Shown here piece after piece: positions 3,328 to 21,659 of a stretch of 25,307 nucleotides of DNA. The translations under genes were made by a program, and so were the position numbers. The notes beneath the pieces were generated by a model. That model ran no database searches. It worked only from the letters and a program-made list of their open reading frames with translations, and was not told the DNA's origin. How positions within the stretch are numbered: the stretch's first letter is position 1; each line of letters starts with the position of its first letter. This DNA is from Deltaproteobacteria bacterium. GTDB lineage: Bacteria > Desulfobacterota > DSM-4660 > Desulfatiglandales > B25-G16. The stretch covers positions 1,552,113 to 1,577,419 of the forward strand of contig CP070660.1 of NCBI GenBank assembly GCA_020355145.1, given 5' to 3'.

Positions 3328-4245
3328 TTAAACCACGCCAATGGGAGTGCGTGGACGATGCATCCCTGAGAGCGCTTGCCCAGTGACCGCTGCAAGCAGA
3401 ATTCCCCCGCCGATGAACGTGATCCTGCTCGGTACCTCTCCTACCACGAGCCAGACCCAGATCGGCGCCAGCACCACCTCGGTGAGAGCAAGCAAAATCA
3501 GCTCCGCCGCGGGAACGTGTCGCGATCCAAAGGTGAATATAATGAGACCGCAGCTGAGCTGCGCCGCACCGAGGATAACGCAGAGGAACAAATCGTGACC
3601 TGAGATCGTCAGACTTCCTTCGACGGCTGTGGCTATGACGCCAGAGATGAGGGCGCTGAATACCCCGGCCAGGCAGACAGAAGGCATCATATCAATCATC
3701 TTGCCGCGGCGGAGTGCCACCGTGTAGCAGGCAAAAGCTAATGCAGCACCCAGAGCCCAGAGATCGCCATATAGACCCCCTACGGCAACGCCTTCGCTCA
3801 CCATGGCAGCCACCCCAAGGGTTGCGGCTATCATGGCCACCCAGGTGCCACGGGACACCCGCTCGCCGAGAACGATCCAGCTCAGTATCGCTGCCATGAA
3901 AGAGGCGGTACTCATCAATAACAAGGTGTTTGCAACCGTCGTATGCTTTAGGGAAGTGATGAAACCGATGAAGGTTAAAGCCAGACACAGAGCTCCTACA
4001 ACGCCGGTTGCGCCTACGGCCCTAAAACCGACGGGTATGGACACCTTATTACGGGCTGCCATGAAGGCGAGCATGGTGACTACCAGTACGACGGAGCGGT
4101 AAAAGACGATCTGCAGCTCACTAGCCGTCTCGATTAGACGGACAAGGACACCACCGATGCTAAAGAAGAGGCCAGACAGCATGACCAAGACGCGGCCTCG
4201 GAGGTAGGCCGCATCGTGTTCAAATGTGGTAGGCGAGTCGAGCAC
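3328..4245 (-). CDS. EamA/DMT-family transporter
   Basis: 305 aa with about 10 hydrophobic helices in two repeats. Motifs include TTVANTLLL, LSWIVLGERV and E.VLAPIWVWLVVGEVP. GTG start; exact start uncertain. Confidence 0.9.
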   Translation of the reverse strand: MLDSPTTFEHDAAYLRGRVLVMLSGLFFSIGGVLVRLIETASELQIVFYRSVVLVVTMLAFMAARNKVSIPVGFRAVGATGVVGALCLALTFIGFITSLKHTTVANTLLLMSTASFMAAILSWIVLGERVSRGTWVAMIAATLGVAAMVSEGVAVGGLYGDLWALGAALAFACYTVALRRGKMIDMMPSVCLAGVFSALISGVIATAVEGSLTISGHDLFLCVILGAAQLSCGLIIFTFGSRHVPAAELILLALTEVVLAPIWVWLVVGEVPSRITFIGGGILLAAVTGQALSGMHRPRTPIGVV

Positions 4246-7472: not shown

Positions 7473-8798
7473 TTATGTCCCCATTTCCCATGAGGACAGA
7501 TATTTTTCCTGCTCTGGGGTGAGGCTGTCAATCTCCACACCCATTGAGACGAGTTTTAATCTTGCGATTTCCTGATCAATTATAAGGGGAACAGGATAGA
7601 CCCTTTTGTCAAGGTTCTTGTGTTCCTTTGATAGATATTCCATGGATAAGGCCTGGTTTGCAAAACTCATATCCATAACACTTGAGGGATGACCCTCTGC
7701 TGCAGCCAGGTTTATCAACCTTCCCTCACCTAGAAGATAGACCCTGTTTCCATTTTGTAGGGTATATTCCTCGACAAATTCCCTGATCTTCCTCCTAGAT
7801 GTAGAGACTTCTGCTAGTCCGGGAAGGTCAAGTTCCACATTAAAGTGTCCTGAATTGGATATGATGGCACCATCCCTCATATCAAGGAAGTGCTCTTTGC
7901 TGATCGCATTTATATCGCCTGTAAGGGTACAGAAAAAGTCGCCGATTTTGGCGGCCTTTGCTATAGGCATAACATCAAATCCATCCATGACCGCCTCTAA
8001 GGCCTTTAAAGGATCTACCTCACAGATAATTACCTTGGCACCATGGCCCTTTGCCCTGGCTGCCACCCCCCGACCACACCATCCATAGCCACACACAACA
8101 AAGTGGCTTCCTGCAAGAAGCCTATTTGTTGCCCTAATGATCCCGTCAATGGTGCTTTGGCCTGTGCCGTATCGGTTATCAAAGAGGTGTTTTGTGTTGG
8201 CGTCGTTTACCGAGATAACCGGAAATTGAAGGACATTGTCCCTTTCCATAGAGCGAAGGCGGATGACACCAGTGGTTGTCTCCTCCGTACCCCCCATAAC
8301 ACCGGCAATGAGCGCGTTCCTTTCCCCTTGAGTTAGGGAAAGGCCCCATTCCCTTATGCCCTGGGAGACATCATCCCATTTATCCAAGGCAATAAAGTGA
8401 AGGGAGCTGACCAGATCAGCACCATCATCCATGGTGAGGTTTGGCATGTTCTTTAGGGGCGACAATATATGGCTGTAGTAGGTGTCGGTGTCTTCTCCTT
8501 TTATGGCAAAGACCGGGATCTTATCAACGGCCACCAGCGAGGCAGCGACATCATCCTGGGTTGAAAGGGGATTGGAGGCACACAGGGCTACAGAGGCACC
8601 ACCTGCCTTGAGTGTTCTTGCCAGGACAGCAGTCTCCGTGGTTATATGCAAACAGGCGGAAATCCTCAGCCCTGATAGGGGCTTGTCTTTAGAAAACCTT
8701 TCCTTGATTGAATTCAAAACAGGCATGCTCTTGCTTGCCCACTCTATTCTGAGTTGACCTGTGGTTGCAAGGCCTATATCCTTGATGTCATAATCCAT
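7473..8798 (-). CDS. ahcY: Adenosylhomocysteinase (SAH hydrolase)
   Basis: [65 protein letters not shown]. Start at ATG 8798 after AGGAGAGG. The 60-aa extension in the ORF track is translated repeat DNA. Confidence 0.97.
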
Positions 8799-8828
8799 CT
8801 GACCTCTCCTCAAATTGCTAAAGAAACT

Positions 8829-8884
8829 TTGCCTCAAACCGGCAAGGCACGAATTCTGCAACGAAATTCGAATATCGAAATTCG
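8829..8884 (+). repeat. Dispersed motif L, copy A: TTGCCTCAAACCG..AGGCACGA leading into heptamer repeats
   Basis: Shares an exact 13-mer, AGGCACGA and the 12-mer AATTCGAATATC with 20295-20356 on the opposite strand. Confidence 0.75.
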
Positions 8885-9011
8885 AAACAAATCCGAATGA
8901 CCAAAATTCAAATGTCCTAAGCCTAGAATTATTTAACCACAGCAAGTAAGGCTCTTGGCAGTTTGGAATTTTGAACATTTGGATTTCGATATTGTTTCGG
9001 ATTTCGGATTT
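8862..9011. repeat. Imperfect inverted repeat built from 7-nt units (CGAAATT/CGAAATC/CGAAACA)
   Basis: The left arm at about 8862-8916 (cgaaatt cgaatat cgaaatt cgaaaca aatc cgaatga ccaaaat tcaaatg) resembles the reverse complement of 8961-9011 (aaatc cgaaatc cgaaaca atat cgaaatc caaatgt tcaaaat tccaaac). Confidence 0.85.
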
Positions 9012-9057
9012 AAAATTCTCATTAGAATCTGGGTTTTATTTCTCCGCAAAAACTCGG

Positions 9058-9093
9058 CATAAATGTTAGGATCTCAGCTTATGTAGACGACTA
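9058..9093 (+). repeat. Dispersed element R, copy 1, overlapping the metK stop codon
   Basis: 9058-9089 matches 13653-13684 at 30 of 32 positions, followed by 1 nt and then the TAG of metK. Confidence 0.9.
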
Positions 9094-10248
9094 TAGGGCC
9101 TTTTTCAGTTTTTCAGCGAGATCTGTCTTCTCCCAGGTAAACTCCTCCAATTCACGCCCAAAGTGTCCGTAGCAGGCGGTCTTTTTGTATATAGGCCTTA
9201 AAAGGTCTAAGGTCTCAATCAAGGCAGCCGGCCTCATATCAAATTCCTTTTCTACCATTTTTGTCATCTCAGCACTGGGCACAACACCGGTTTCATAAGT
9301 ATCAACCATTAAACCAACCGGTTGTGCCTTGCCAATGGTGTAGGCTACCTGGATCTCACACTTTTCAGCCAGACCAGCAGCAACTATATTCTTGGCAATG
9401 TAGCGACACATATAGGAGGCGCTCCTATCTACCTTGGATGGATCCTTGCCGGAAAATGCACCGCCACCATGGTGACCAAATCCTCCGTAGGCATCCATTA
9501 TAACCTTCCTACCGGTCATCCCACAATCTCCCAGGGGACCGCCAGTAACAAATCTACCAGTAGTATTTACAAAAAACTCTGTGTTTTTATCAATCATCTC
9601 AGGTGGGATAACCGCCTTTATCACCTCTTCAATAATTGCCTCTCTTAAGGTATCGTAATCGACCTCAGGGGAGTGCTGGGCTGCAATAACAACTGTCTGA
9701 ACAGTAGTAGGTTTTAAATCTATATATCGAACTGTTACCTGAGATTTTCCATCTGGCCTCAGCCATGGAAGGCTTTCGGATTTGCGGACATGGGCAAGCC
9801 TTTGGGTAAGGCCATGGGCAAGGTAAATAGGCATTGGCATAAAAACAGGGGTGTCAGTGCAGGCGTACCCGAACATGAGTCCCTGATCACCTGCTCCCTT
9901 CTCCTTGAAAAGACCAGTACCATTAACTCCCTGGGCAATGTCAGCTGACTGTTTGTCAATGCTTGTAATAACGGCACACGTCTCCCAGTCAAAGCCCATG
10001 GATGAGTCGTTGTAGCCTATCTCCTTTATGGTCCGTCTGGCAATCTCCGGCATCTCCACATAACAACTGGTCGTTATCTCCCCTGCAATAACTGTCATAC
10101 CTGTAGTAACCAGGGTCTCACAGGCTACCCTTCCATATTTGTCCAGGCCTATAATCTCATCAAGTACGGCATCAGAGATCTGATCAGCTATCTTGTCCGG
10201 ATGTCCCTCGGTTACAGACTCAGATGTGAATAGGAAATCGATGTTCAT
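9091..10248 (-). CDS. metK: S-adenosylmethionine synthetase
   Basis: [41 protein letters not shown]. Confidence 0.98.
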
Positions 10249-10373
10249 TTTAGGTTCCTCTCTTCATTAAATATTGGTGTTAAGGCACGTCCACTTTCAG
10301 CTCTATACCAAAAGCTAAACAAATCTTAAATGACAAAAGGTCTCGTTGCGGCGCACTCACAGCCTTAGCCGCC

Positions 10374-10985
10374 CTATTTAGGTGGACTGACAATACCACC
10401 AGATATGATTAGTTTGAATGCATCCTCAACAGTCATATTGAGCATTACCACTTCATCTTCTGGTATAAGTATATAAAATCCACTCGTAGGATTAGGCGTT
10501 GTCGGAATAAAGACATTTATCATATTCTTATCGGTTCTATCCTGTACCTCACCCTTGCTTTCCCCTGTGATAAAGCCAATAACATAGGCCCCGCGCCTGG
10601 GATATTCTACCAATCCCACCCTTTTAAAGGCATCGGTCTTCTGCAAAAAGATGGTCTCCAGAAGCTGTTTAACCCCAGCATAGAGGATCCTTACCAAGGG
10701 AATACGCTCCACTATATTCTCTCCAAGGCGAACTATCTTCCTGCCAACAATGTTTTTGGTTAAAAGACCGACGGCTAAGACAAGGATAACTACAAAGATA
10801 AGACCAAGCCCAGGTATATGAACTTGAAGATAGGTGTCTGGAAGGTATTTAGCAGGGATAATCTTAAGTATTGCATCCATGCCCCTGATTAAAAACAATA
10901 TGACTTTCACCGTTATAAAGATCGGTAGAATTACCAGCAGACCAGTAAGAAAATAATTTTTTAGGCTTGTCCTTAGGCGTTTCAA
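10374..10985 (-). CDS. DUF502-family membrane protein
   Basis: FLTGLLVILP, two TM helices, RIPLVRILY, VEYPR.G, FIPTTPNPTSGF, AFKLIISGG. TTG start overlaps the panC TGA. Confidence 0.9.
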   Translation of the reverse strand: MKRLRTSLKNYFLTGLLVILPIFITVKVILFLIRGMDAILKIIPAKYLPDTYLQVHIPGLGLIFVVILVLAVGLLTKNIVGRKIVRLGENIVERIPLVRILYAGVKQLLETIFLQKTDAFKRVGLVEYPRRGAYVIGFITGESKGEVQDRTDKNMINVFIPTTPNPTSGFYILIPEDEVVMLNMTVEDAFKLIISGGIVSPPK

Positions 10986-11830
10986 TTTTCCCTCACTATA
11001 ACATTATCTATCAACCTGGCCTTTCCTACCCTTACGGCCAATGCAAAAAGGGAAGGCCTATCTATTATCCCGATATCGGTAAGTTCTTCTGGGTCGCAGA
11101 TGGCTATATAGTCGATTTCAGTAGATGGGTGGCTCAGGATTAGTTCCCTTACTGCATCCTTGATCTCAGCAGGGTCTTTTTCCCCTTCTGCTACCATAGC
11201 CTTGGCTAAATCCAGGCCCTTTTTCAGGCTCAATGCTGAGGACCTTTCCTCTGGGGTCAAATAACTATTCCTGCTACTGATAGCAAGGCCATCCTTTTCT
11301 CGTACTGTCGGAACCTCAATAATCTCAATGTCCATGCTTAAGTCCCTGACCATCCTCTTAATGACGATTAACTGCTGATAGTCCTTTTCGCCAAAGATCG
11401 CCAGGTGGGGTCTAGTGATATTAAAGAGCTTTGCAACCACAGTGGTTACCCCAGCAAAGTGTCCAGGTCTTGATCTTCCACAAAGATACTCCGTGATCTC
11501 CTCTACCCTAACAGTGCTTTGGAAACCATCAGGATACATCTCTTCCACAGTTGGCATGAACACAGCGTCTACTCCACAAGAGCGTGCCTTATCTAGGTCC
11601 CCCTCAGCATCCCTGGGATATCTTTTATAGTCCTCTTGAGGGCCAAACTGGATTGGATTAACAAAGATACTCATTATCAATCTATCCCCGTTTTCCCTGC
11701 CGACCCTCAATAGCTCAATATGGCCCTGGTGGAGAAATCCCATGGTTGCTACAAGGCAGATGATATCTCCATCCCTTCTCCATTTCTCGGATAGCCCTTG
11801 CATCAATTCTATCTCTTTGATTATCTCCAT
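10982..11830 (-). CDS. panC: Pantoate--beta-alanine ligase
   Basis: TMGFLHQGH, SIFVNPIQF, RPGHF.GV.TVV.KLF, FGEKDYQQL, REKDGLAISSRN, RLIDN. Confidence 0.97.
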   Translation of the reverse strand: MEIIKEIELMQGLSEKWRRDGDIICLVATMGFLHQGHIELLRVGRENGDRLIMSIFVNPIQFGPQEDYKRYPRDAEGDLDKARSCGVDAVFMPTVEEMYPDGFQSTVRVEEITEYLCGRSRPGHFAGVTTVVAKLFNITRPHLAIFGEKDYQQLIVIKRMVRDLSMDIEIIEVPTVREKDGLAISSRNSYLTPEERSSALSLKKGLDLAKAMVAEGEKDPAEIKDAVRELILSHPSTEIDYIAICDPEELTDIGIIDRPSLFALAVRVGKARLIDNVIVREN

Positions 11831-11835
11831 GTTTC

Positions 11836-11979
11836 TTAAGTGCCTAAAGTGCCTAAAATTTAAATAAAAAATAACTCAACTGCTTGAGTTGACATCATTT
11901 TCTTTCTTTTCTCCAACATATGTAAAAACAGCAGGTAATTTAACCAATTTTGGCTCACTTCAAACTTTACCTCACTTAA
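11836..11979. repeat. Inverted pair of 9-nt periodic repeats (AAGTGCCTA / AAGTGAGCC type) spanning the kinase-panC spacer
   Basis: Left arm TTAAGTGCCTAAAGTGCCTAAAATT (11836-11860). The reverse complement of 11946-11979 is TTAAGTGAGGTAAAGTTTGAAGTGAGCCAAAATT and includes the kinase TAA. Confidence 0.7.
11864..11890 (-). terminator. Possible intrinsic terminator
   Basis: AACTCAA-GCAG-TTGAGTT stem followed by ATTTTTTATTT on the minus strand. The stem is AT-rich and therefore weak. Confidence 0.35.
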
Positions 11980-12632
11980 TGTCTTGATCCAAGGGGGACA
12001 TAATACTTTGTTCCCCCTTGCATCCTTTCTATCTCAAGTATTAAGTCATCGAGATCAGATGGAACGTTAACAAAATCTATCTCCGAGGCATTGATTACTA
12101 AAAGGGGGGTCTCAGTGTAATGGAAAAAGAATTCATTGAAGGCCTGATTTATTTGATCCAGATACTTGAGCTCTATTGATCTCTCATAATCCCTATTCCT
12201 CTTTTTGATCCTTTCTCTCAAGACATCAGTCCTTGCCTGCAGAAATATAACCAGATCCGGTCTTAATATCTTGACCTTCAGGAGTTGGAATATCTGCTCA
12301 TATAAGCTGAATTCCCTGTCATCCAAGGTAGTCCTTGCAAAGATTCTGTCCTTATCAAAGAGGAAGTCTGAGATCACCACCCTTTTGAAAAGATCAATCT
12401 GATTTATCTCCTCCTGTCTTTGAAAGCGCTTAAGTATAAAGAAGAACTGCGTCTGAAATGCAAATCTCTTTGGATCCTTATAGAAGCTGGTAAGAAAAGG
12501 GTTTGCTTCAGTACCCTCCAGGATGGTCTCTCCATTTATCCTCTCAGCCAACAACAGGGCCAGGCTGGTTTTGCCTACCCCCAATGGACCTTCAACAACT
12601 ATATAACCTTTTTGATGCAATCTTTTGATCAT
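11976..12632 (-). CDS. Deoxynucleoside kinase (dNK family)
   Basis: YIVVEGPLGVGKTSLA P-loop, NPFL..FY.DP.RFAFQTQ.FF, K.D.IFA, PDLVIFLQA, RIKKRNR.YE. Confidence 0.93.
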   Translation of the reverse strand: MIKRLHQKGYIVVEGPLGVGKTSLALLLAERINGETILEGTEANPFLTSFYKDPKRFAFQTQFFFILKRFQRQEEINQIDLFKRVVISDFLFDKDRIFARTTLDDREFSLYEQIFQLLKVKILRPDLVIFLQARTDVLRERIKKRNRDYERSIELKYLDQINQAFNEFFFHYTETPLLVINASEIDFVNVPSDLDDLILEIERMQGGTKYYVPLGSRH

Positions 12633-12633
12633 A

Positions 12634-12645
12634 TCCGCCGGCGGA
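12634..12645. repeat. 12-bp perfect palindrome TCCGCCGGCGGA, 1 nt upstream of the kinase ATG
   Basis: Read directly. Its arms match those of the TCCGCC-TGG-GGCGGA palindrome at 20145-20159. Confidence 0.6.
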
Positions 12646-12682
12646 CTAAGTTAGGCAAGAGCCTCATTTGGATGCCCAAGAG

Positions 12683-13561
12683 CTAAATAACATTGACTTT
12701 ATTGTGTGTCAAGAGAGATGTCTTATCTGGTGTTAAGGCAGAACTCAGTCGTATGTATTCATCTATAGTGAGGTTCTCGGCCCTTCTTTTTGGGTTAATG
12801 AGGCACTCCTCAAGGGCCTTTGCTATCATTTCCCTGGGTACAGACACCATTCCCCTCTCAAGGGAATTAAGGATTGTCTTCCTCCGACAACTAAATGCTG
12901 CCTTGACAATCCTATGGAAAGACTCCTCGTTTTCTGCCTGAAATGGGTATGGCCTCTCAAGGTCAATCTCCAAAACCATAGAATCCACCTTTGGTTTGGG
13001 GTAAAAGGCCTGCCTTTTAATCTTGATAAGCGGAGATATCCGGGCATAGTATTGACTGATGACACTAAGGGCCCCGTAGTCCTTTCTATTTGGCCCAGCA
13101 GTCAAACGTTGTGCAAATTCATATTGAAACATCAGGACCGCACTTTTTATATAGTCTCGATTTACTATAAGCCTTTCCAGGAATGGAGACGAGATATTAT
13201 AGGGGAGATTACCTAATACCTTGATCTTTTGTTGATATCTATCATAGATCTCCTTAACATCGAACTTCAGGATATCCCCGGAGATAAATGTTATCTTTTC
13301 GTTGTCTTTCAGTGGCACCCTCTCCTTTAGGATAGCTATCAATAATGGATCTTTCTCCACAGCCACCACATGAGAAATGTGGGGGAGGATTGGGATCGTT
13401 AGGGCCCCTAAACCTGACCCTATTTCTACAACCACATCCTTATTATCAAATCTTGCATGGGTAATGATCTTATTGATTATGCCAGGGTCTTCCAGAAAGT
13501 GTTGACCCAGTCTCTTCCTGGGTCTAAGCCCTGATTTAGTTAACAAGGCCCTAGTGCTCAT
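12683..13561 (-). CDS. rsmA: 16S rRNA (adenine-N6)-dimethyltransferase
   Basis: LGQHFL, VVEIGSGLGALT, GNLPYNISSP, MFQYE.A.RL, F.P.PKVDS, F..RRKTI.N, RAENL. Confidence 0.96.
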   Translation of the reverse strand: MSTRALLTKSGLRPRKRLGQHFLEDPGIINKIITHARFDNKDVVVEIGSGLGALTIPILPHISHVVAVEKDPLLIAILKERVPLKDNEKITFISGDILKFDVKEIYDRYQQKIKVLGNLPYNISSPFLERLIVNRDYIKSAVLMFQYEFAQRLTAGPNRKDYGALSVISQYYARISPLIKIKRQAFYPKPKVDSMVLEIDLERPYPFQAENEESFHRIVKAAFSCRRKTILNSLERGMVSVPREMIAKALEECLINPKRRAENLTIDEYIRLSSALTPDKTSLLTHNKVNVI

Positions 13562-13597
13562 TGTGTTTGTTGCGTCCTTTGAGTTTATAGGATTTTA
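13561..13597 (-). repeat. Degenerate 9-nt periodic repeat (AAACTCAAT/AAACCCAAT family) abutting the rsmA ATG
   Basis: Forward ttgtgtttg ttgcgtcct ttgagttta taggatttt resembles the gtttattgg units at 19619-19654. Confidence 0.45.
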
Positions 13598-13649
13598 GCA
13601 CAAAAAGCTCAGGAAATTAATTATTCCAAAAAGGTAGCTTGAGAAGGCA

Positions 13650-13689
13650 TGACATAAATGTTAAGATCTTAGCTTATGTAGACGTCTAG
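13650..13689 (+). repeat. Dispersed element R, copy 2, overlapping the tsaD stop codon
   Basis: TGACATAAATGTTAAGATCTTAGCTTATGTAGACGTCTAG, with internal palindromes TAAGATCTTA and TAGACGTCTA. The final CTA is the tsaD TAG. Confidence 0.9.
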
Positions 13690-14705
13690 ATCTGATCTAG
13701 AGGAAATCTCGACCTTGCATCCAAGGTTAGATCATCCCCCTGGCCTTTTATTATCCTATGATAAGCGGCGACAGCTATCATAGCCCCATTATCTGTACAT
13801 AATTCCGGACTTGGGATATACAGATCAATTTCCCTTTTAGCCATCACCTCTTGTAAATTACAGCGTAAATAGTTGTTTCTGGCTACTCCTCCCGCTAGCA
13901 CAACGGAGTTTGCACCGACTTGGGCGGCGGCCGCAATCACCTTATCTATTAGGATATCAACCACTGCGGCCTGAAAGGATGCGGCTATATCTGCTATCTT
14001 GATCTTATCGTCGCACCCTTTTTGAAGGCGCCATTTCCTGACATAAAGGGCAACAGCAGTCTTGAGGCCACTAAAGCTGAAGTCAAGAGAGTCTTTGGAT
14101 AGGTAGGCCCTTGGAAAACCAGCGGCCTCAGGCCGGCCTTTTGCAGCCAGTTTCTCTATTACAGGGCCACCTGGATAACCCAGTTCCAGAAGTTTTGCGA
14201 TCTTATCGAATGCCTCTCCAGCGGCATCGTCCAAGGTCTGACCCAACACGGTATAATCCCCAAAATCTCTGACCTGATAGATGTTTGTATGGCCACCTGA
14301 AACAGTAAGGGCCACGAAGGGGAAGGGGGGACACCTCTTTTCCAAGAAGATAGAGAGGATATGCCCCTCCAGGTGATTGATTCCTATTAGGGGGATATTG
14401 TTGGCATAGCTAAAGGCCTTGGCGAAATTGATGCCAACTAGGAGGGCACCAACAAGACCAGGCCCCACAGTAACCGCTATTGCATCAATATCATTACTGT
14501 TGAGGTGAGCCCTTCTTAGGGACTCCCTAACAACCCAAACGATATTCCTAATATGTTCTCTTGAGGCAAGTTCCGGGACTACCCCACCATATCGGTGGTG
14601 GACAATGACCTGAGAGTTGACAATATTAGATAATAATCTCTTTCCATCTTCTACTATTGCGGTGCAGGTGTCATCGCAGGAGGTATCTATACCGAGTATA
14701 ATCAT
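13686..14705 (-). CDS. tsaD: tRNA threonylcarbamoyltransferase
   Basis: GIDTSCDDT, GGVVPELASR.H, GPGL.GAL.VG, NHLEGH, VSGGHT, DDAAGEAFDK, FSFSGLKTA, CTDNGAMIA. Confidence 0.98.
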   Translation of the reverse strand: MIILGIDTSCDDTCTAIVEDGKRLLSNIVNSQVIVHHRYGGVVPELASREHIRNIVWVVRESLRRAHLNSNDIDAIAVTVGPGLVGALLVGINFAKAFSYANNIPLIGINHLEGHILSIFLEKRCPPFPFVALTVSGGHTNIYQVRDFGDYTVLGQTLDDAAGEAFDKIAKLLELGYPGGPVIEKLAAKGRPEAAGFPRAYLSKDSLDFSFSGLKTAVALYVRKWRLQKGCDDKIKIADIAASFQAAVVDILIDKVIAAAAQVGANSVVLAGGVARNNYLRCNLQEVMAKREIDLYIPSPELCTDNGAMIAVAAYHRIIKGQGDDLTLDARSRFPLDQI

Positions 14706-14744
14706 AATCTGGCATGGGTTCTACCAAGGAGGAATGGGTAGAAA

Positions 14745-17303
14745 TTATTGTTTGGAGGCCCTATTGTTTCTCAATTGATCCATCCGTTCTACCACCTTTC
14801 TGAGATGTCCAGCCATCAAATCCGCCTTCTGGTATCGTTTACTAACATCCTTGGCCAAGGCCTTATCTATTATCTTTTCAACGATAGGTGGAATCTTTGG
14901 ATTAATCTCCCTTGCTGAGGGGTGTTTCTCTCTGGTAATCTGGTACATAAGTGATGTCATATCTTCAGAGGCAAAGGGCTTTTGGCCACTCAACATCTCA
15001 TAAAGTACTATACCCAGCGAGAATATATCTGAGCGTCCGTCAACCTTTCTCCCACTCACCTGTTCAGGAGACATATAGGAAGGGGTACCCAGAATAACAC
15101 CGGTTTTTGTCCTGGAAGAGGAAGTAATCCTGGCGATACCAAAATCCGTAACCTTTATTTCGCCTGTGTCTTTGAGCATCATGATGTTGGCAGGCTTTAT
15201 GTCCCTGTGAACAACATTGTTGCTGTGGGCATAACCTAAGGCATCGGCTACATGGGTTATAATATCAAGCACATCCCTCAAAGGCAGTAACTTTCCCTTA
15301 TGTGTGTATTCCACTAAATTTTCTCCATTCAGGAATTCCATGGCTATAAAGGCCAGATCGTGCTCCTCACCAGCATCGTATATAGATACAATGCTAGGAT
15401 GGTTCAACCCCCCGGCTGACTCTGCCTCCCTGAAAAAGCGTCCCTTTATCTCACCCGCCTCTTGCTGGTCAAACTCGGATAGCCGTATGGTTTTTATAGC
15501 AACGGTTCGATGGATTGTGGGATCAATCCCCTTATAGACAATCCCCATTGCACCACGACCTAACTCCCCTGAAACCTCATATCTGCCAAGCGTTGGTTTG
15601 GTATCCAGGTCTTGGATTGTTGCCGCTATGTCACCAGGATGGGGGCCAGTAGCACCAAAGATCATAGTTGATTCAGCATCTTTTAGCTTAGGCATTCTTT
15701 CATTCAGGTCCTTAAAATCGCTACCATCTTCAATGATCATATTATATGCTGCTAATGCCTTGCTAAACTGTCTCTTTCTCTCATAATCCAGCCCAAGATT
15801 GTACATAAGATCCTTGACCCCTGGCTCATCTATAGGGCATTTTCGAAATTTTTCAAAGGCAAGATCCAGCAATCCTTGTTGCTGGAGAGAGAGACCAAGG
15901 GACTTGTTCGTCTCTACGGAATCGGCCTCCACCTTTTCTTTTGTCCTCTCAGTGATGAAAAAATGTCTGCTAACAACTAAGATATAGCCAAGAATGAGAA
16001 GAACTATTTGGGGTGTGATCTTAAGCCATATATTCGAGCGAAAAAAGAGGATCGTCCCTGCTGCGCCGTAAGAGAGAAAGAGGATTAATGTGATAATGGC
16101 ACCGGTACTGGCCTTTAGTCTTGGCAGGAGAAACGATATATAGAGCCCGAAAAAAAGTATTACACCAAGCTCAATAAGTGTGGTCCATTGAGGCCGTACA
16201 AAAAATCTTTCCCTTAAGATATTGGAGACAGAATTGGCTATTATCTCCACACCGGGCAAGGTACCGGAGAGAGGTGTAACAAATCGGTCCCCAAGTCCTG
16301 GGGCGGTGAGCCCAACAATGACAATCTTGTCCCTGAAGAGGCTAGTTTGAAATTTGTTATTGAAGACTTTCCTGAATGGTGTTGCGTGAAATGCAACACC
16401 TGGTCCATCGTTCCATTTGATAACAAAATCTTTTGCTGGAATCCTGATGGTCTTGGAAGGGGTAACCTTTATATCAATTCCCTCCCCCAAGATAAGGTTG
16501 ATGTGACTGTCTTCTAATCCTTTGAAGGCCTTTACAATCGCCATAGGAAACGATGGAACGAATGTGTTTTCTAAATAGCCAATGGCATGGGTTTGACTCC
16601 TGATGGATCCGTCAGCATCTGGAAAGACGTTTATATAACCAATGCCTGCAACCGAATCTGCAAAGGATGGTAGGAGTGGCTTTATCTTGGAATACCACCT
16701 GATGGAGCTGACGGCCAATTCATCCTTTAGACCGTCTATAACCTTATAGGAGTTTTTGGGTATGTAGTCAGGGACCGCCTCGTCCCTTCCCGTGCTTAAG
16801 GTATCGAAGTAGAAAGGAAGAATTACGTTACCAGCCTTTATAAAGGCCTTAGCCAATTTCGCATCATTATCCAGATCAGCCTCTGCCTTATTCAATTCAC
16901 CATAAAATGTCTTGGCAGATGGGCCCTCTAAACCGAGATCTTTATAAATCTTCTTCAGCTCTTTAACTGTTTTGAGGCCGGCACTCTCCTCTGGCTCATT
17001 AAAAATGATATCCAGGGCGATAACCTTGGCACCAGCCATTGCGAGGTTGTTTATTGCATTGGCAATGATATTCCTTGGCCAGGGCCAACGACCAATTTCA
17101 GCCAAATCATCATCGTCTATAACCACGATCTCGATATCTGGATTTCTCTCCCCAGAGGCACTAAGCCTGGAGCCGAGGTCAAATCTTTTCTTCTCTATAA
17201 CATCTGTAAAATCATCAAAACCTGTGACGAACATGAATAGGAATAGAAGGGTAAGGATTAGGCCAATCAACCATTCAGGAATACCCTTTTTGAATAACAT
17301 CAT
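14745..17303 (-). CDS. Membrane-anchored CHASE2-domain Hanks-type Ser/Thr kinase with a TPR-like linker
   Basis: N-terminal TM helix; CHASE2 motifs IVVID, GRWPWPR, VIALDIIF, D.DG.IR, PGVEI.AN; three TM helices; helical linker; kinase motifs LGRGAMGIVY, VAIK, HRDIKPAN, DFG, GTPSYMSPE, DGRSDIFSLG. The start may be the second ATG (17300). Confidence 0.95.
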   Translation of the reverse strand: MMLFKKGIPEWLIGLILTLLFLFMFVTGFDDFTDVIEKKRFDLGSRLSASGERNPDIEIVVIDDDDLAEIGRWPWPRNIIANAINNLAMAGAKVIALDIIFNEPEESAGLKTVKELKKIYKDLGLEGPSAKTFYGELNKAEADLDNDAKLAKAFIKAGNVILPFYFDTLSTGRDEAVPDYIPKNSYKVIDGLKDELAVSSIRWYSKIKPLLPSFADSVAGIGYINVFPDADGSIRSQTHAIGYLENTFVPSFPMAIVKAFKGLEDSHINLILGEGIDIKVTPSKTIRIPAKDFVIKWNDGPGVAFHATPFRKVFNNKFQTSLFRDKIVIVGLTAPGLGDRFVTPLSGTLPGVEIIANSVSNILRERFFVRPQWTTLIELGVILFFGLYISFLLPRLKASTGAIITLILFLSYGAAGTILFFRSNIWLKITPQIVLLILGYILVVSRHFFITERTKEKVEADSVETNKSLGLSLQQQGLLDLAFEKFRKCPIDEPGVKDLMYNLGLDYERKRQFSKALAAYNMIIEDGSDFKDLNERMPKLKDAESTMIFGATGPHPGDIAATIQDLDTKPTLGRYEVSGELGRGAMGIVYKGIDPTIHRTVAIKTIRLSEFDQQEAGEIKGRFFREAESAGGLNHPSIVSIYDAGEEHDLAFIAMEFLNGENLVEYTHKGKLLPLRDVLDIITHVADALGYAHSNNVVHRDIKPANIMMLKDTGEIKVTDFGIARITSSSRTKTGVILGTPSYMSPEQVSGRKVDGRSDIFSLGIVLYEMLSGQKPFASEDMTSLMYQITREKHPSAREINPKIPPIVEKIIDKALAKDVSKRYQKADLMAGHLRKVVERMDQLRNNRASKQ

Positions 17304-17317
17304 TCTCCCTCAATTTC

Positions 17318-17875
17318 CTAAGTCCCAATATACGGCTTTATTTTTAGGTAGCGGAGTTTTCCTATACCTGGTACAGATTTTATCTCCTCTACCGTGTCAA
17401 ATGGACCGTAAAGAGATCTATAATTGATGATCTTCTCTGCCAGAGAAGGCCCTATATCAGGTATAGCATCCAGTTCTTCCTGACTCGCGGTATTTATAGA
17501 TATAGGGATTCTGAGGGTGACCTTATATGCCGCGGGTATAGATCCAGGTAAGACCTTCATATAACCATTCTCTGAGCTAATTTGAACACTTGTCCCTTGG
17601 CTAAGAGGTATCTTAGGCCACTGTCTACTCCGCTGCTCTCGGACCAGTCCACCAGCCCTGGATATCAGTTCCTTTAAGGAAGGGTGCCCCTCAAACACAT
17701 AGACCCCAGGGCTTTTTACTTCCCCGGTGATAAGGATAACGATATCATTTCCTCTTCCAACAAGGCCAAGATCTCCCTGTAAAGAAGATAGGTAGTTTAT
17801 GCCCCATCCCAGAAGGAGGATTAGAACAAGGATGGAAAGGCCTACCTGCTGTTTGCTAATTCTTTTCCCCTTCAT
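17318..17875 (-). CDS. comEA: ComEA-family DNA-binding protein (TM, SLBB-like, helix-hairpin-helix)
   Basis: ITGEVKSPGVY; ISINTASQEELDAIPDIGPSLAEKIINYR..G.F..VEEI..VPGIG. Start taken at ATG 17875, overlapping the lysC end by 20 nt. Confidence 0.85.
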   Translation of the reverse strand: MKGKRISKQQVGLSILVLILLLGWGINYLSSLQGDLGLVGRGNDIVILITGEVKSPGVYVFEGHPSLKELISRAGGLVREQRSRQWPKIPLSQGTSVQISSENGYMKVLPGSIPAAYKVTLRIPISINTASQEELDAIPDIGPSLAEKIINYRSLYGPFDTVEEIKSVPGIGKLRYLKIKPYIGT

Positions 17876-19085
17876 TACCCAGACCAAAGGCCTCATGTAG
17901 GGCCCTTACAGCAAGCTCTGTATATTTTTCCTCTACAACGCAGGAGATCTTTATCTCAGAGGTACTGATCATGCTTATATTGATACTCTCCTTTGATAAG
18001 GCCTCGAACATCTTGGAGGCAACCCCGGCATGATTTCTCATGCCCAGTCCGACAATAGACACCTTAGCAATATCGGGGTCTCCCAGCACCTTTTCTGCCC
18101 CTATTTCCTTGGCAACCCCTCTAACCAATCTTAAGGTCTCCTGAAAATGGGTCTTGGTGACTGTAAATGTCAGATCAGTTAGGCCTTGGGCACTGGGATT
18201 CTGGATAATCATGTCCACCACTATCCCTGCCTTGAAAACAGGATCAAATATCTCGAATGCAATTCCAGGCCTATCAGGCACCTTGACTATCGTAATCCTG
18301 GCCTCATCTTTGTCAAAGACAACACCAGAGACCAGTACCCTTTCCATCTCTCTATCTTCTACTACTACCATGGTTCCCTCATTTCTCGTAAAAGATGATC
18401 TTACATGAATGGGCACATTAAATTTTTTGGCAAATTCAACTGATCTTATATCCAAGACCTTGGCACCTAAGCTGGCCAACTCTAACATCTCTTCATAGGA
18501 TATCCTGTCAAGTTTTCTGGCATGGGTGCAGACACTCGGATCAGCTGAGAAGATGCCATCTACATCGGTAAAGATCTCGCATACAGAGGCCTTTAGCGAC
18601 GCTGCCAAGGCAACCGCAGTAGTATCTGATCCCCCCCTTCCTAAGGTGGTGATGTTTCCAGTTTTATCAATTCCCTGGAACCCAGCTACAGCTACAATCC
18701 TGTCCTCATCTAACTCCTTTACTATGCGATGGGTATCAATCTCCTTGATCCTTGCCTTGCCATAGATTTGGTCTGTATGTATATCCGCCTGGAAGCCAAG
18801 AAGCGAGCGACAATCATAGCCCATGGACTTGACTGCTATAGCAAATAAGGATACACTTACTTGCTCGCCCGTAGCCATCAGGACGTCTAATTCCCTTGGG
18901 TCTGGGGACTCTGTTATCTCTCTGGATAGATTTATCAAGGCATCCGTCTGTCCTGCCATAGCAGAGAGAACCACCACAAGCCTGTTTCCTCTTTCACATG
19001 ATTCAACTACCCTCTCGGCAACCGTTTTTATCTTTTCAACAGAGCCTACAGAGGTACCGCCATACTTTTGGACGATTAACGCCAT
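17856..19085 (-). CDS. lysC: Aspartate kinase with two ACT domains
   Basis: VQKYGGTSVG, VVLSAM, GEQ, VAGFQG, TTLGRGGSDTTA, TDVDG....DP, STSEIKIS. Confidence 0.97.
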   Translation of the reverse strand: MALIVQKYGGTSVGSVEKIKTVAERVVESCERGNRLVVVLSAMAGQTDALINLSREITESPDPRELDVLMATGEQVSVSLFAIAVKSMGYDCRSLLGFQADIHTDQIYGKARIKEIDTHRIVKELDEDRIVAVAGFQGIDKTGNITTLGRGGSDTTAVALAASLKASVCEIFTDVDGIFSADPSVCTHARKLDRISYEEMLELASLGAKVLDIRSVEFAKKFNVPIHVRSSFTRNEGTMVVVEDREMERVLVSGVVFDKDEARITIVKVPDRPGIAFEIFDPVFKAGIVVDMIIQNPSAQGLTDLTFTVTKTHFQETLRLVRGVAKEIGAEKVLGDPDIAKVSIVGLGMRNHAGVASKMFEALSKESINISMISTSEIKISCVVEEKYTELAVRALHEAFGLGNEGEKN

Positions 19086-19087
19086 AT

Positions 19088-19615
19088 CTAACAGGTTTCG
19101 CTCTTTTTAATTTCCTTCAAAGAGATGCCCACCCTTTCCCTTAGGGCCATTAGAATCTCTTTAGCCCTGAGATGAGAACCAGAAAATCTAAGTTCCCTTG
19201 TATGTTCATCTACCATCCTTAACTCGACCTGAATAGTCTCCTCCGGGAGCTCGCCTGGCCAACGGTCTGCCCACTCTATAACAACTATGCCTTCCCCTGA
19301 AAGGTAATCCTCCAGATCTAAGGCCATGATCTCAGTGGTGTCACTTAGCCTATAAAGGTCTATATGAAAAAGTTGGTGCCTCCCCTTGTGTTCATTAACA
19401 AGGGTAAATGTCGGACTGACTACACAATCTGGGCCAATCTCAAGGCCAATAGCCACTCCTTTTGTAAACCATGTCTTACCACCACCCAAATCGCCAATTA
19501 ATGCAATAATATCACCATCGATTAACTGGACCCCTAATTGCTGGCCTAACCAAACAGTCTTTTCAACTGAGGTTGTCAAATATCCTACAGAGACCTCTTG
19601 CAGACTCAATGCCAC
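19088..19615 (-). CDS. tsaE: tRNA threonylcarbamoyladenosine biosynthesis ATPase
   Basis: GDLGGGKT, SPTFTLVNE, H.DLYRL, IEWADR. GTG start is uncertain. Confidence 0.93.
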   Translation of the reverse strand: MALSLQEVSVGYLTTSVEKTVWLGQQLGVQLIDGDIIALIGDLGGGKTWFTKGVAIGLEIGPDCVVSPTFTLVNEHKGRHQLFHIDLYRLSDTTEIMALDLEDYLSGEGIVVIEWADRWPGELPEETIQVELRMVDEHTRELRFSGSHLRAKEILMALRERVGISLKEIKKSETC

Positions 19616-19684
19616 TTAGTTTATTGGGTTTATTGTGTTTTTTGGGTTTATTGGGTCAAAACCTATGAGCTAAACAAAAACTAA
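19616..19684. repeat. 9-nt tandem repeat (GTTTATTGG x4) inside an imperfect inverted repeat filling the acpS-tsaE spacer
   Basis: Units at 19619-19654: gtttattgg gtttattgt gttttttgg gtttattgg. The spacer ends read TTAGTTTATTG and (reverse complement) TTAGTTTTTG. Confidence 0.8.
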
Positions 19685-20071
19685 TTATGTGGCACCTTTT
19701 TCAAGTATTACTACAGCTATGCCATAGTAACTCTCATCTGAAAGGGTAACGTACCACCTTCTTATTCCCTCCTTATGACAGAGATTAAGGGCCTCTCCAG
19801 TCACATTAAGCTCAGGCCGACCATTTGGGTCTTGAACTATCTCTATATCCCGCCACCTGATACCCTTTTTCATACCTAAACCTATCGCCTTTGAAAAGGC
19901 CTCCTTGGCAGCGAAACGCAGGGCAAGGGAGGAAACTGACTTTGCACCTCGAAAGCAGAAATCAATCTCCTGGTCAGTAAGTATCCTATTTATAAACCTT
20001 TTTCCCCATTTATCTACTACCCTTCCCATCCTCCTTATATTTACAATATCTACACCAATACCATAAATCAT
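19685..20071 (-). CDS. acpS: Holo-[acyl-carrier-protein] synthase
   Basis: IYGIGVDIV, RFAAKEAFSKAIG.G, GRP, TLSD. Confidence 0.97.
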   Translation of the reverse strand: MIYGIGVDIVNIRRMGRVVDKWGKRFINRILTDQEIDFCFRGAKSVSSLALRFAAKEAFSKAIGLGMKKGIRWRDIEIVQDPNGRPELNVTGEALNLCHKEGIRRWYVTLSDESYYGIAVVILEKGAT

Positions 20072-20109
20072 CGCATTGTTATCCTCTTGCGAAATTCTAA
20101 CAGGGTAAA

Positions 20110-20169
20110 CTAGATATCTTCTTAGCTCAAGATCTTAACATTTATCCGCCTGGGGCGGATTTATGTCAA
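20110..20169 (-). repeat. Dispersed element R, copy 3, interrupted by a 13-bp palindrome
   Basis: Minus strand TTGACATAAAT[CCGCCCCAGGCGG ATAAAT]GTTAAGATCTTGAGCTAAGAAGATATCTAG. Removing the bracket restores the 21-mer TGACATAAATGTTAAGATCTT found in copy 2. Confidence 0.85.
20140..20164. mobile_element. 13-bp palindromic insertion CCGCC-TGG-GGCGG flanked by a direct ATTTAT duplication
   Basis: ATTTAT (20140-20145), then CCGCCTGGGGCGG (20146-20158), then ATTTAT (20159-20164). The empty-site allele is seen in element R copies 1 and 2. Mobility itself is inferred. Confidence 0.6.
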
Positions 20170-20294
20170 GCCCTCCCTGGCGCGACGTGATTGTAAAAAG
20201 CCATTGCCGCTTTAATATTAATGATGCAGGAGCTATAAAATTAAGTCCTTGCATGCCAGGTCTGGGCCAGGGTTCTAGCGGTGAAATGAAATCC

Positions 20295-20356
20295 CGACTT
20301 TGATATTCGAATTCCGTATTTTCTTGCTAACATCGTGCCTAGTCGGTTTGAGGCAA
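20295..20356 (-). repeat. Dispersed motif L, copy B, 7 nt after the pdxJ stop
   Basis: Minus strand TTGCCTCAAACCGACTAGGCACGA...GGAATTCGAATATCAAAGTCG aligns with 8829-8884. Confidence 0.75.
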
Positions 20357-20363
20357 GGCTCCA

Positions 20364-21083
20364 CTAGAATTGGGATACCAATTTAACCATCTCGCGGACG
20401 GCCTGATCTATTCCCACCATCACTGTCCTGGCAATGATGCTATGGCCAATGCTATATTCCTCTATCTCGGGAATAGATGAAAATCTCTTTATGTTCACAT
20501 AATTAAGGCCATGCCCGGCGTGTACCTTCAGCTTGAGCCTGCTCGCTAACTTCGCTGCCTCCTTGATCTTTTCAAGATTTCTCAGGATATCTGATTCTTT
20601 TCTTGCCTCACTGTATTCTCTCGTGTTGATCTCAATTATATCTGCCCCTGCATTAAGGGATTCTCCTATCCGATCAGGGTCTGGATCAATAAAGAAGCTG
20701 ACTGAAATACCGGCCTCCTTTAGTTTGTCGGTAACCTTTTTGTATTCCTCTTTGTTGCCTGCAACATCAAGGCCACCTTCGGTGGTTAACTCTTCCCTTC
20801 TTTCTGGGACGAGTGTTACCACATCCGGTTTAATGTCAAGGGCAATGCCAACCAATTCCTTAGCAGGTGCCATCTCCAGATTCAATTTAGTCTTGACTAC
20901 CTTTTTAAGTAGGCTTAGGTCCCTATCCTTGATATGTCGCCTATCCATTCTCAAATGACATATGATTCCTTCAGCACCAGCTAATTCAGCTATACCAGCA
21001 GCCAAAACTGGGTCCGGCTCATCTACTCCCCTAGCTTCGCGGATCGTTGCAATATGATCAACATTAACAGATAAAAGGGCCAT
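20364..21083 (-). CDS. pdxJ: Pyridoxine 5'-phosphate synthase
   Basis: [53 protein letters not shown]. Confidence 0.97.
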
Positions 21084-21120
21084 AGTAATTAACTCGTCAT
21101 TTAATTAAGCCTTTTCGTAA

Positions 21121-21146
21121 CTAAAGACCTTAAGATTTATGTCAAG
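21121..21146 (-). repeat. Dispersed element R, partial copy 4 (promoter-like, upstream of pdxJ)
   Basis: CTTGACATAAATCTTAAGGTCTTTAG matches the de-interrupted copy 3 at 23 of 26 positions. Confidence 0.6.
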
Positions 21147-21182
21147 TTTTATCACGCTGCCTTTTTGGGCTAAATAGTCTCT

Positions 21183-21230
21183 GGAGTTTGTTCTGTTAAA
21201 GCCCCATGAACTCAATCAACACAACACACA
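21183..21230. repeat. Degenerate 9-nt periodic repeat pair abutting the ybeY stop
   Basis: ccccatgaa ctcaatcaa cacaacaca (21202-21228) resembles the reverse complement of 19619-19654. GGAGTTTGTTCTGTT (21183-21197) is a weak opposite arm. Confidence 0.45.
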
Positions 21231-21659
21231 CTAGTAATTTAACAACCGTTCCGTCTCCTCTTCCATCGTGCGGGCCTCCTCCTCTGACCTTTCGTGGTCA
21301 TAGCCTAAAAGGTGTAAGAGACCATGAATTGAGAGTCTATCAATGGTCCTATTAAGGCTCTCACCAATCCTTTTCGCATCCCTTATAGCAGCATCTAAGG
21401 ATATGACTATATCTCCCAGCATTGGTGTCTCAGGCTCAGTATGATCACCATCTCTCATTGGAAAGGCAAGGACATTTGTCGGGCCTTCTCTTTTGAGAAA
21501 ACGGCAGTTCAGTTCTGCTATGTTTTTATCATCTGTAAACAGTAAGCTCAGTTCACAGTTATGGTATCCCAAGCCTTCTAAGATCCTCTTTAGCTTCATC
21601 CTTATCTTCCCGGGATCTATGTTTCTCATGGGGTGCAGGCAACTTATCTGAATCTCCAT
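21231..21659 (-). CDS. ybeY: rRNA maturation endoribonuclease YbeY
   Basis: ELSLLFTDD..I.ELN, PTNVLAFP, LGDIVIS, HGLLHLLGYDH. GAGGGA precedes ATG 21659. Confidence 0.95.
   Translation of the reverse strand: MEIQISCLHPMRNIDPGKIRMKLKRILEGLGYHNCELSLLFTDDKNIAELNCRFLKREGPTNVLAFPMRDGDHTEPETPMLGDIVISLDAAIRDAKRIGESLNRTIDRLSIHGLLHLLGYDHERSEEEARTMEEETERLLNY

Follow-up and report, generated by a model that had tools for sequence, protein, structure and literature searches.

Among described insertion sequences, IS630 prefers TA within 5′-CTAG-3′ and duplicates the TA (Tenzen & Ohtsubo 1991, cited in PMC2170065), and IS5 duplicates a 4-bp 5′-YTAR-3′ target (PMC5009759). MITEs of the IS630/Tc1-mariner type (RUP, Correia-type) are small, non-coding, multi-copy and located in spacers, some of them with outward promoter-like boxes. 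Enterobacterial BIME/REP mosaics and PATEs (IS200/IS605-derived) are built of interchangeable modules, have asymmetric ends, contain small nested GC hairpins and lie behind stop codons in both orientations. IS91 and other rolling-circle elements use a GTTC/CTTG-type target.

The non-coding blocks analysed here were traced from a stretch of 25,307 nucleotides (hereafter the window) of a draft Desulfobacterota genome, in which gene names were confirmed by NCBIfam. They share the above features of the IS630/Tc1-mariner MITEs and of the BIME/REP mosaics and PATEs, and their borders (CTAG, TTAG, CTAA) fit the YTAR target of the IS5/IS1182 group. However, they differ from the IS630/Tc1-mariner and IS5/IS1182 groups in lacking inverted repeats at their termini, with left and right ends that are unrelated sequences, from BIME/REP in that their conserved motif (motif A) is AT-rich and unstructured and has neither a stable REP hairpin nor a flanking RAYT gene, and from IS91-type elements in their CTAG target. 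Compared with IS200/IS605-derived PATEs, the border pattern was compatible and subterminal hairpins were unsupported. As judged from sequence comparison, motif A very probably forms the conserved right terminus of mobile blocks, non-coding and non-autonomous, that insert at (C/T)TAG in an uncultured Desulfobacterota family of seep bacteria resembling sulfate reducers. The element is real and of a fairly ordinary kind, with an unusually lopsided build.

Motif A in the window

A first-pass annotation had described a four-copy palindromic element, two copies of which end on the TAG stop codons of metK and tsaD. All four copies were located in the window, with E values of 1e-8 to 5e-14 in a profile search of the genome, and the same search returned about 25 copies (E<0.01) instead of four. 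Copy 1 (9045-9094, plus strand, E 3.7e-13) and copy 2 (13644-13689, plus strand, E 4.6e-14) were identical at 33 of 36 positions (9058-9093 versus 13653-13688), and both terminate in CTA, the reverse complement of the TAG stop, so that the docking on metK (stop at 9091-9093) and tsaD (stop at 13686-13688, inside the terminal CTAG) was reproduced. Copy 3 (20106-20169, minus strand) is split by a nested GC hairpin (about 20140-20164); its CTAG end (20110-20113) and its TTGACA facing acpS (20169-20164) were confirmed in the sequence, as was the TTGACA facing pdxJ (21146-21141) in copy 4 (21104-21151, minus strand, E 9.6e-9), which lies 21 nt upstream of the pdxJ start and is degenerate in its 3′ part.

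The palindromic character held in part: AAGATCTT was a robust palindrome, but the outer arms around AGATCT matched at only 10-12 of 22 positions, and the motif formed no hairpin. The terminal palindrome AGACGTCT was not a family feature, and the symmetry reported to be preserved in copy 3 is a coincidence, because the family consensus at that place is AGAC-R-N-CTAG.

Copy 1 closes a block of ~270 nt on the right and copy 3 one of ~255 nt, and the two blocks have a common left end. Block 1 (plus strand) is preceded by a CTAA tetranucleotide (8818-8821), which lies 20 nt before the actual start of ahcY, and consists of a left-end motif (8822-8852, a variant of GAAGCTYCGCCTCAAACCGAC that also heads block 3), a variable interior (module I, 8853-9044) with heptamer-built inverted arms that give a long hairpin (DNA fold z -3.6), and copy 1, whose last CTA coincides with the stop codon TAG of metK. 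Module I also precedes motif A elsewhere in the genome. The ahcY open reading frame is over-called, and the real start at 8798 leaves a metK-ahcY spacer of ~290 nt; the finding thus flags over-called reading frames of this kind. Block 3 (minus strand) follows a CTAG (20364-20367) that holds the pdxJ TAG stop (20364-20366), and consists of its left-end motif (20333-20363), a different variable interior (module II, 20170-20332) and copy 3. Module II precedes motif A at four other loci of the genome and in the metK-ahcY spacer of the relative G006.

The similarity of copies 2 and 4 extends upstream by another ~108 nt at 74% identity, which defines a second type of left part, module B. Near rsmA, module B (13562-13643, plus strand) begins directly after the rsmA start codon and was recognised by a 108-nt, 74% match to 21124-21231; in unit 4 it occupies 21152-21230 (minus strand) and directly follows a CTAG (21231-21234) with the ybeY TAG stop.

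Family size and distribution

Motif A (~45 nt) was present in 25 copies (profile search, E<0.01) in the 1.68-Mb draft genome and occurred more than once in 28 out of the 31 related genomes searched (MAGs of uncultured Desulfobacterota, from seeps and Guaymas), with 0-2 hits in the reversed control; the scan of genome and relatives suggested by the first-pass annotation thus yielded further copies, and the size of the family is far beyond chance. Within the genus the number varied from 1 to 20 (20 in this genome, 1-11 in congeners), and it reached 32 in the family. Six copies in the genome carry a nested hairpin at one shared position with different upstream modules, which shows that this variant spread by copying. 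No family matched the window at gathering score in an Rfam search of its whole length, no paper was found in a literature search for motif A strings, and no match to block 3 was obtained by BLAST against plasmid and phage collections.

Block architecture and borders

The blocks that end on the right in motif A are mosaic, non-coding and ~110-520 nt long, and their interiors vary. The consensus of motif A consists of an A-tract, CTTGAC, ATAAATKTTAAGATCTT, four free bases, TATRWAGAC, two free bases and CTAG, and in 78 copies from many MAGs the conservation stopped exactly at CTAG. Of 69 right ends, 61 were CTAG, which is the rarest palindromic tetramer in this genome (o/e 0.24) and much less frequent than the remaining YTAR words; this preference sets the blocks apart from the IS5/IS1182 group. 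Left ends were mostly preceded by CTAG as well. A common left end was found on the same strand 69-480 nt upstream of motif A in 40 of 81 copies family-wide; the left part was most often GAAGCTYCGCCTCAAACCGAC and at times a TGTGTTTGTTG-type module, and the interior was variable, often an inverted-repeat module and at times with nested GC hairpins. In ~40% of the copies of motif A, TTGACAT was directly followed by one hairpin or two, of variable length.

Folding and symmetry were evaluated for each part. Motif A alone folded no better than shuffled sequences (DNA fold z about +0.5) and gave no hairpin, the hairpin drawn for the left end had no pair-count support beyond 3 bp, and block 3 as a whole was not structured in the fold test. 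Comparison of the left end with the reverse complement of motif A gave no inverted repeat beyond CTAG, and no paired A ends were found within 3.5 kb of each other. The missing inverted repeats between the block ends are atypical for DDE-type MITEs and count against a mobile block. Two different conserved ends, swappable interiors, a family-wide motif and no visible partner enzyme make an unusual combination, and the blocks are a reasonable test case for the movement of miniature elements without inverted repeats. In MAG L094, two A halves make up one 46-nt variant that is truly palindromic.

Empty sites, turnover and orientation

Four clean comparisons of filled and empty sites at YTAG were obtained with congeners, at pdxJ-acpS and three more loci. 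At these sites, (Y)TAG-element-(Y)TAR in this genome corresponds to one (C/T)TAG in the congeners; a short target duplication would here be 2, 3 or 4 nt long. The pdxJ-acpS spacer is 37 nt long in G003 and G004 versus ~290 nt in the window, and empty sites matching the left flank of block 3 (T-TAG-(T/G)TTACCC) were found in G003, G004 and L220. A metagenome contig with an acpS flank 98.5% identical to the window was empty at the same pdxJ-acpS TAG. In congeners, the tsaD and metK genes stop at the same TAG with the element absent, and the tsaD-rsmA spacer compared with theirs is a replacement rather than a clean insertion. Since the nearest genomes are just ~85% identical, long times and several events lie between the members of most filled/empty pairs. 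Orthologous spacers in relatives were mostly without motif A, and the blocks explain why spacers cannot be aligned between species of this seep lineage despite the conserved gene order.

Relative to the adjacent gene, motif A was codirectional in 25 cases and convergent in 25, and clustering of the genes adjoining it gave no recurrent neighbour. Of 118 ends, 12 were docked on a TAG stop, compared with 4.4% of the CTAG sites genome-wide. Of the two signs of mobility sought, empty orthologous sites were clear, and the enrichment at TAG stops was modest; docking on stops follows from the choice of a (C)TAG target and is expected, with no extra phenomenon. As a Desulfobacterota case, the blocks represent a CTAG-targeting miniature element with TAG stops as safe landing sites.

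These positions were weighed against an operator, which the first-pass annotation had offered as an option: motif A would be the binding site of a regulator tying SAM-cycle and housekeeping genes (ahcY, rsmA, acpS, pdxJ). The short palindromic core AAGATCTT, the position in spacers upstream of genes and the conservation of the motif across genera would suit an operator. However, motif A is mostly absent at these spacers from congeners that have the same order of genes, the copy number ranges from 1 to 20 inside one genus, the adjoining genes are of unrelated function and do not recur, the motif lies anywhere from ~50 to ~275 nt from the start codon in the window, and ~100-400 nt of flanking non-palindromic sequence is repeated with it, unlike binding sites. 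Neither conservation at orthologous loci nor a fixed position, as for a transcription-factor regulon, was seen, and an operator is very improbable.

A mobile block fits better. The blocks are small, non-coding and multi-copy, and their number differs among relatives. The first-pass option of a (C)TAG-targeting, MITE- or REP-like element that lands harmlessly at stop codons is supported by the empty sites, the CTAG borders, the variable copy number and the random orientation; the unit is larger than had been noted, motif A being only its right end, and it has neither terminal inverted repeats nor a REP-type hairpin. Direct observations are the many copies, the borders, the empty sites, the turnover and the random orientation; movement would presumably be by transposition, with motif A as the putative protein-binding end of the block. 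A block would insert at a (C/T)TAG site and then be bracketed on both sides by that short sequence, either because 2-4 nt of target are duplicated or because an element that itself terminates in CTAG is inserted on the 3′ side of the target. TAG stop codons would offer target sites and be rebuilt upon insertion, which would place some copies at an identical offset on the stop codon. A point against such a block is that the near-identical consensus of motif A over several genera would need some constraint.

Search for a partner enzyme

No autonomous copy (left end, gene, then motif A) was found within 3 kb of any copy. Five transposase families (Y1/RAYT-like, IS630 DDE_3, IS91 Y2, IS5/IS1182 (DUF772) and IS110) were examined in the genome and its relatives, and neither motif A nor the left end was found at their borders; both results count against a mobile block. 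Briefly, this genome has one truncated IS630-type DDE_3 gene, with similar genes in 2 of 30 relatives (3 of 31 genomes in all), and the borders of the gene in this genome carry no left end or full motif A, so that an IS630-derived element was rejected. Genes of the IS5/IS1182 type in these genomes have other ends, and neither motif A nor the left end occurred at 16 IS110 loci. A MITE mobilised by a DDE enzyme through terminal inverted repeats that match an autonomous insertion sequence was likewise rejected, since the left end and motif A share CTAG alone.

A single-stranded DNA intermediate was also considered, in which REP/REPIN- or PATE-like blocks would be inserted 3′ of CTAG, without true duplication, by an HUH tyrosine transposase (RAYT, IS200/IS605 or IS91 type). 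The variable left parts of the blocks all start at CTAG, as happens in the one-ended rolling-circle transposition of IS91. The asymmetric ends, the target tetranucleotide that flanks the element on the left and recurs as its final four bases, and the Y1 HUH and IS91-type Y2 proteins encoded in the genome point the same way. In contrast, motif A gives no hairpin and that of the left end lacks pair-count support; the Y1 genes, which are multi-copy and also present in families without motif A, are flanked by their own GGGGTCA...TTGAC inverted repeats (15-25 nt, 24-25 nt in this genome), unrelated to motif A, and have no motif A nearby; and the IS91-like element has ends that differ from motif A. 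Since motif A does not fold and is absent near Y1 genes, a REP/REPIN with a RAYT was rejected, as were the Y1 protein as partner and, with CTAG as target here, an IS91/rolling-circle derivative. Insertion by an HUH enzyme is improbable.

The mobile blocks may instead represent a new CTAG-specific type of element with two unrelated conserved ends, moved by a non-DDE recombinase, an HUH enzyme or a host protein that recognises the 45-nt motif A, which might also serve as an outward host promoter. Such recognition of the A end would keep motif A near-invariant across several genera while the interiors are freely swapped. Such a new type is rather unlikely and is put forward speculatively.

Promoter-like boxes in motif A

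The portable -35 proposed in the first-pass annotation is present as TTGACA after an A-tract, and lies 20 nt from the best -10-like box. Motif A could on this basis be a selected portable promoter with TTGACA and the A-tract as -35 and TATRWA or TGTTAAGAT as -10, for which mobility would be merely the means of spread; transcription starting close to the terminal CTAG would account for the end of conservation at that point. TTGACA and the A-tract are kept family-wide, and in 17 of the 25 codirectional cases a start codon lies 0-36 nt past CTAG with a Shine-Dalgarno sequence between. In the window, motif A is the final conserved sequence ahead of acpS and pdxJ, and a block divides the pdxJ-acpS junction that measures 37 nt in congeners. 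The units composed of module B and motif A contain TTGATA-17 nt-TAAGAT with a TG extension. However, half of the copies face the 3′ end of a convergent gene, the 20 nt between TTGACA and TATRWA are followed by a box without the conserved final T, and the hairpins inserted after TTGACAT in ~40% of copies would break any fixed promoter spacing. In a consensus promoter scan, none of the window copies had a promoter based on TTGACA, and the sole hit inside motif A was TTGAGA-17-TAAGAT at copy 2. A selected portable promoter is therefore possible but unlikely, and a selected role as an antisense promoter is unlikely in view of the 25:25 orientation split.

For the mobile blocks, the outward-facing TTGACA and TATRWA boxes may nevertheless cause read-out transcription, and the blocks are also a test case for promoter donation when operons such as pdxJ-acpS are split.

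Motif A in the window and in related genomes

All four reported copies of motif A were present in the window, every gene of which is carried on the minus strand; the identities of ahcY, metK, rsmA (ksgA), tsaD, acpS, pdxJ and ybeY were confirmed by NCBIfam. Copies 1 (metK-ahcY) and 2 (tsaD-rsmA) were near-identical as claimed (33/36 positions match) and were indeed docked on TAG stops, their terminal CTA being the complement of the stop codons of metK (9091-9093, minus strand) and tsaD (13686-13688, minus strand), respectively. Copies 3 and 4 lay upstream of acpS and pdxJ on the strand opposite to copies 1 and 2.

The source assembly is a 259-contig draft (1.68 Mb, 44% GC), the window being one of its contigs. 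The motif was not limited to four copies: a profile built from the window copies detected 25 in the genome (E<0.01), each of them in a spacer or at a gene border. In a scan with one genome per species, at least 80 loci with the motif A core were found among 116 matching stretches; nearly all motif A loci among the matches listed came from MAGs labeled Desulfobacteraceae, Deltaproteobacteria or Desulfatiglandales, with cold seeps and Guaymas Basin as sources. Motif counts were 1-20 in the genus (20 in the source genome, 1-11 in congeners) and up to 32 in the family, vs 0-2 in a reversed-pattern control. Rfam families gave no match in the window, plasmid and phage collections gave none to block 3, and no paper with motif A was found in the literature. 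The element is a non-autonomous mosaic repeat of uncultured Desulfobacterota that targets CTAG and whose conserved ends are asymmetric.

Architecture of the repeat blocks

The motif of the first-pass annotation is real, but it is only the right end of a larger mosaic block: motif A was not free-standing but followed a long repeated module drawn from a small set. Blocks of ~270 and ~255 nt have copies 1 and 3, respectively, as their right ends and both open with the same left end, a variant of GAAGCTYCGCCTCAAACCGAC, and copies 2 and 4 have ~108 nt more in common. Alignment of the 78 copies with enough flank, among the matches listed, gave a consensus of A-tract and CTTGAC, ATAAATKTTAAGATCTT, four free bases, TATRWAGAC, two free bases and CTAG, past which conservation ended abruptly. 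The only robust palindrome within motif A was AAGATCTT, and the symmetry-preserving change from AGACGTCT to AGATATCT proposed earlier was not a family feature in this alignment. No fold was found for motif A by itself, and it was therefore excluded as a REP-type hairpin or terminator.

In 40/81 motif A occurrences the same left end lay on the motif's own strand, 69-480 nt upstream, and was nearly always directly preceded by CTAG, and motif A right ends were CTAG in 61/69 (all among the matches listed). The unit is thus CTAG, left end, variable interior, motif A and CTAG. This tetramer is the most avoided palindromic one in the genome (o/e 0.24).

About 40% of the 78 aligned copies carried one or two small GC hairpins just after TTGACAT, in the form TCCGCC-loop-GGCGGA with varying loops (window 20140-20164 in copy 3). 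Because the hairpin stood at the identical position in six genome copies behind different modules, the hairpin variant was copied. Hairpins were sometimes in tandem, ATAAAT being repeated each time, and four more were located elsewhere in the genome; the hairpin looks like a second, nested mini-element.

The 501-aa ahcY ORF was over-called at window 8799-8978. The profile match begins only at residue 63, homology to congeners stops near 8816, and translation really starts at the ATG at 8798-8796, with GGAGAGG as its Shine-Dalgarno sequence; the 60 surplus codons are read-through of the repeat block.

At ~3328-3373 of locus L094, two inverted motif A 3' halves joined at AGATCT form a 46-nt, CTAG-bounded, perfect-type palindrome, the sole copy seen with true inverted ends. 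Solo 3' fragments (~20 nt, with CTAG or TTAA as their last bases) were found at G000:C1:1621822-1621854 (source genome, L061) and at 1405-1435 of locus L067; one lies between two genes, where congener G004 has 5 nt, and the other directly adjoins the stop codon of a truncated IS630-type gene. Another copy abuts the tRNA-Ser 3' end (G000:C1:650447-650473), likewise in another MAG (L078), with a degenerate outer part in both genomes, and may be an old, retained copy. A second repeat family opens with GGGGCTTCGCCCCAATTGGAGTATTGG after (C/T)TA (G000:C1 73644, 335611, 630731, 762646 and 1059369; L197); the similarity of its initial bases to the left end of motif A blocks hints at a common end type.

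Empty sites and turnover

Five congeners (80-89% nucleotide identity) keep the gene order of the window, but the spacers did not align. The pdxJ-acpS spacer was 37 nt in congeners G003 and G004 vs ~290 nt in the window, the insertion lying exactly after the pdxJ TAG, which recurs at the far side. The same empty site was present in a metagenome contig with an acpS flank 98.5% identical to the window. At three more genome loci, YTAG-block-YTAR (CTAG, TTAG, CTAA) corresponded to a single CTAG/TTAG in congeners, so that the empty orthologous sites expected of a mobile (C)TAG element were found at four loci. Two congeners had the same tsaD ATC-TAG stop without the element, the remaining tsaD-rsmA spacer being replaced. 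At metK, congener G006 had the orthologous motif A copy with another interior module, indicating that interiors are exchanged.

In congeners the tsaD-rsmA spacer (L041, L043, L045) is ~340-570 nt and resembles a minus-strand small membrane-protein gene, in place of which the window has a 124-nt unit of module B and motif A (13562-13685) and G005 a 157-nt remnant. The pdxJ gene (20364-21083) lies between two direct-orientation motif A copies, is absent between ybeY and acpS in G005 and G002 contigs, and in metagenome contig L220 is only 88% identical, the adjoining acpS being 98.5% identical. This points to a breakpoint of recombination at the element.

Insertion preference, orientation and regulatory readings

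TAG-stop docking was seen at 12/118 ends among the matches listed, always with the same offset, as expected for a (C)TAG target; genome-wide, 4.4% of CTAG sites are TAG stops. Relative to the gene adjoining the CTAG end, 25 copies were codirectional and 25 convergent (matches listed), and neighboring genes were unrelated to one another. The mobile-element option was supported by this orientation together with empty sites, CTAG borders and variable copy number.

An operator tying together ahcY, rsmA, acpS and pdxJ was ruled out by the random orientation, the unrelated neighbors and the lack of motif conservation at orthologous loci, which likewise make a dedicated promoter unlikely. Motif A has TTGACA preceded by an A-tract and oriented outward from the block, and a start codon lies 0-36 nt past the end of many codirectional copies (matches listed), as a promoter would predict, but 20 nt separate TTGACA from the best -10-like box, this region varies through hairpin insertions, and a consensus promoter scan did not call these TTGACA sites.

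Possible transposition mechanisms and candidate enzymes

The border pattern fits TA duplication within CTAG, as described for IS630 (Tenzen & Ohtsubo 1991, as cited in PMC2170065), duplication of a 4-bp YTAR target of the IS5 kind (PMC5009759), and HUH-type integration on the 3' side of CTAG, the element itself having CTAG as its last bases. The host base preceding TAG varies by species, and the metK copy ends in CTAT. The unrelated sequences of the left and right ends argue against a classical DDE MITE.

In the source genome and 30 relatives, neither motif A nor the left end was found at the borders of Y1 HUH protein family, IS5/IS1182-type or IS110-type genes, the truncated IS630-type gene or the IS91-like element, and no left end-to-motif A distance exceeded 480 nt among the matches listed.

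Y1 (HUH) transposase-like proteins of ~330 aa were multi-copy across the order (L066/L209, G000:C1:783003-783968; L210-L218). In 8/9 loci examined, their genes were flanked by their own exact inverted repeats of 15-24 nt (24-25 nt in the source genome) beginning with GGGGTCA, in a few cases GGGTCA or GGTGTCA, the right repeat spanning the last codons and TAG stop of the gene. An IS91-like element (L223, G000:C1:1220093-1223653) contained a tyrosine-recombinase gene with a broken frame and, after it, a gene for a 398-aa Y2 transposase, and the Y2 domain was present in 13/31 genomes (12 relatives and the source genome) vs 0/14 control genomes.
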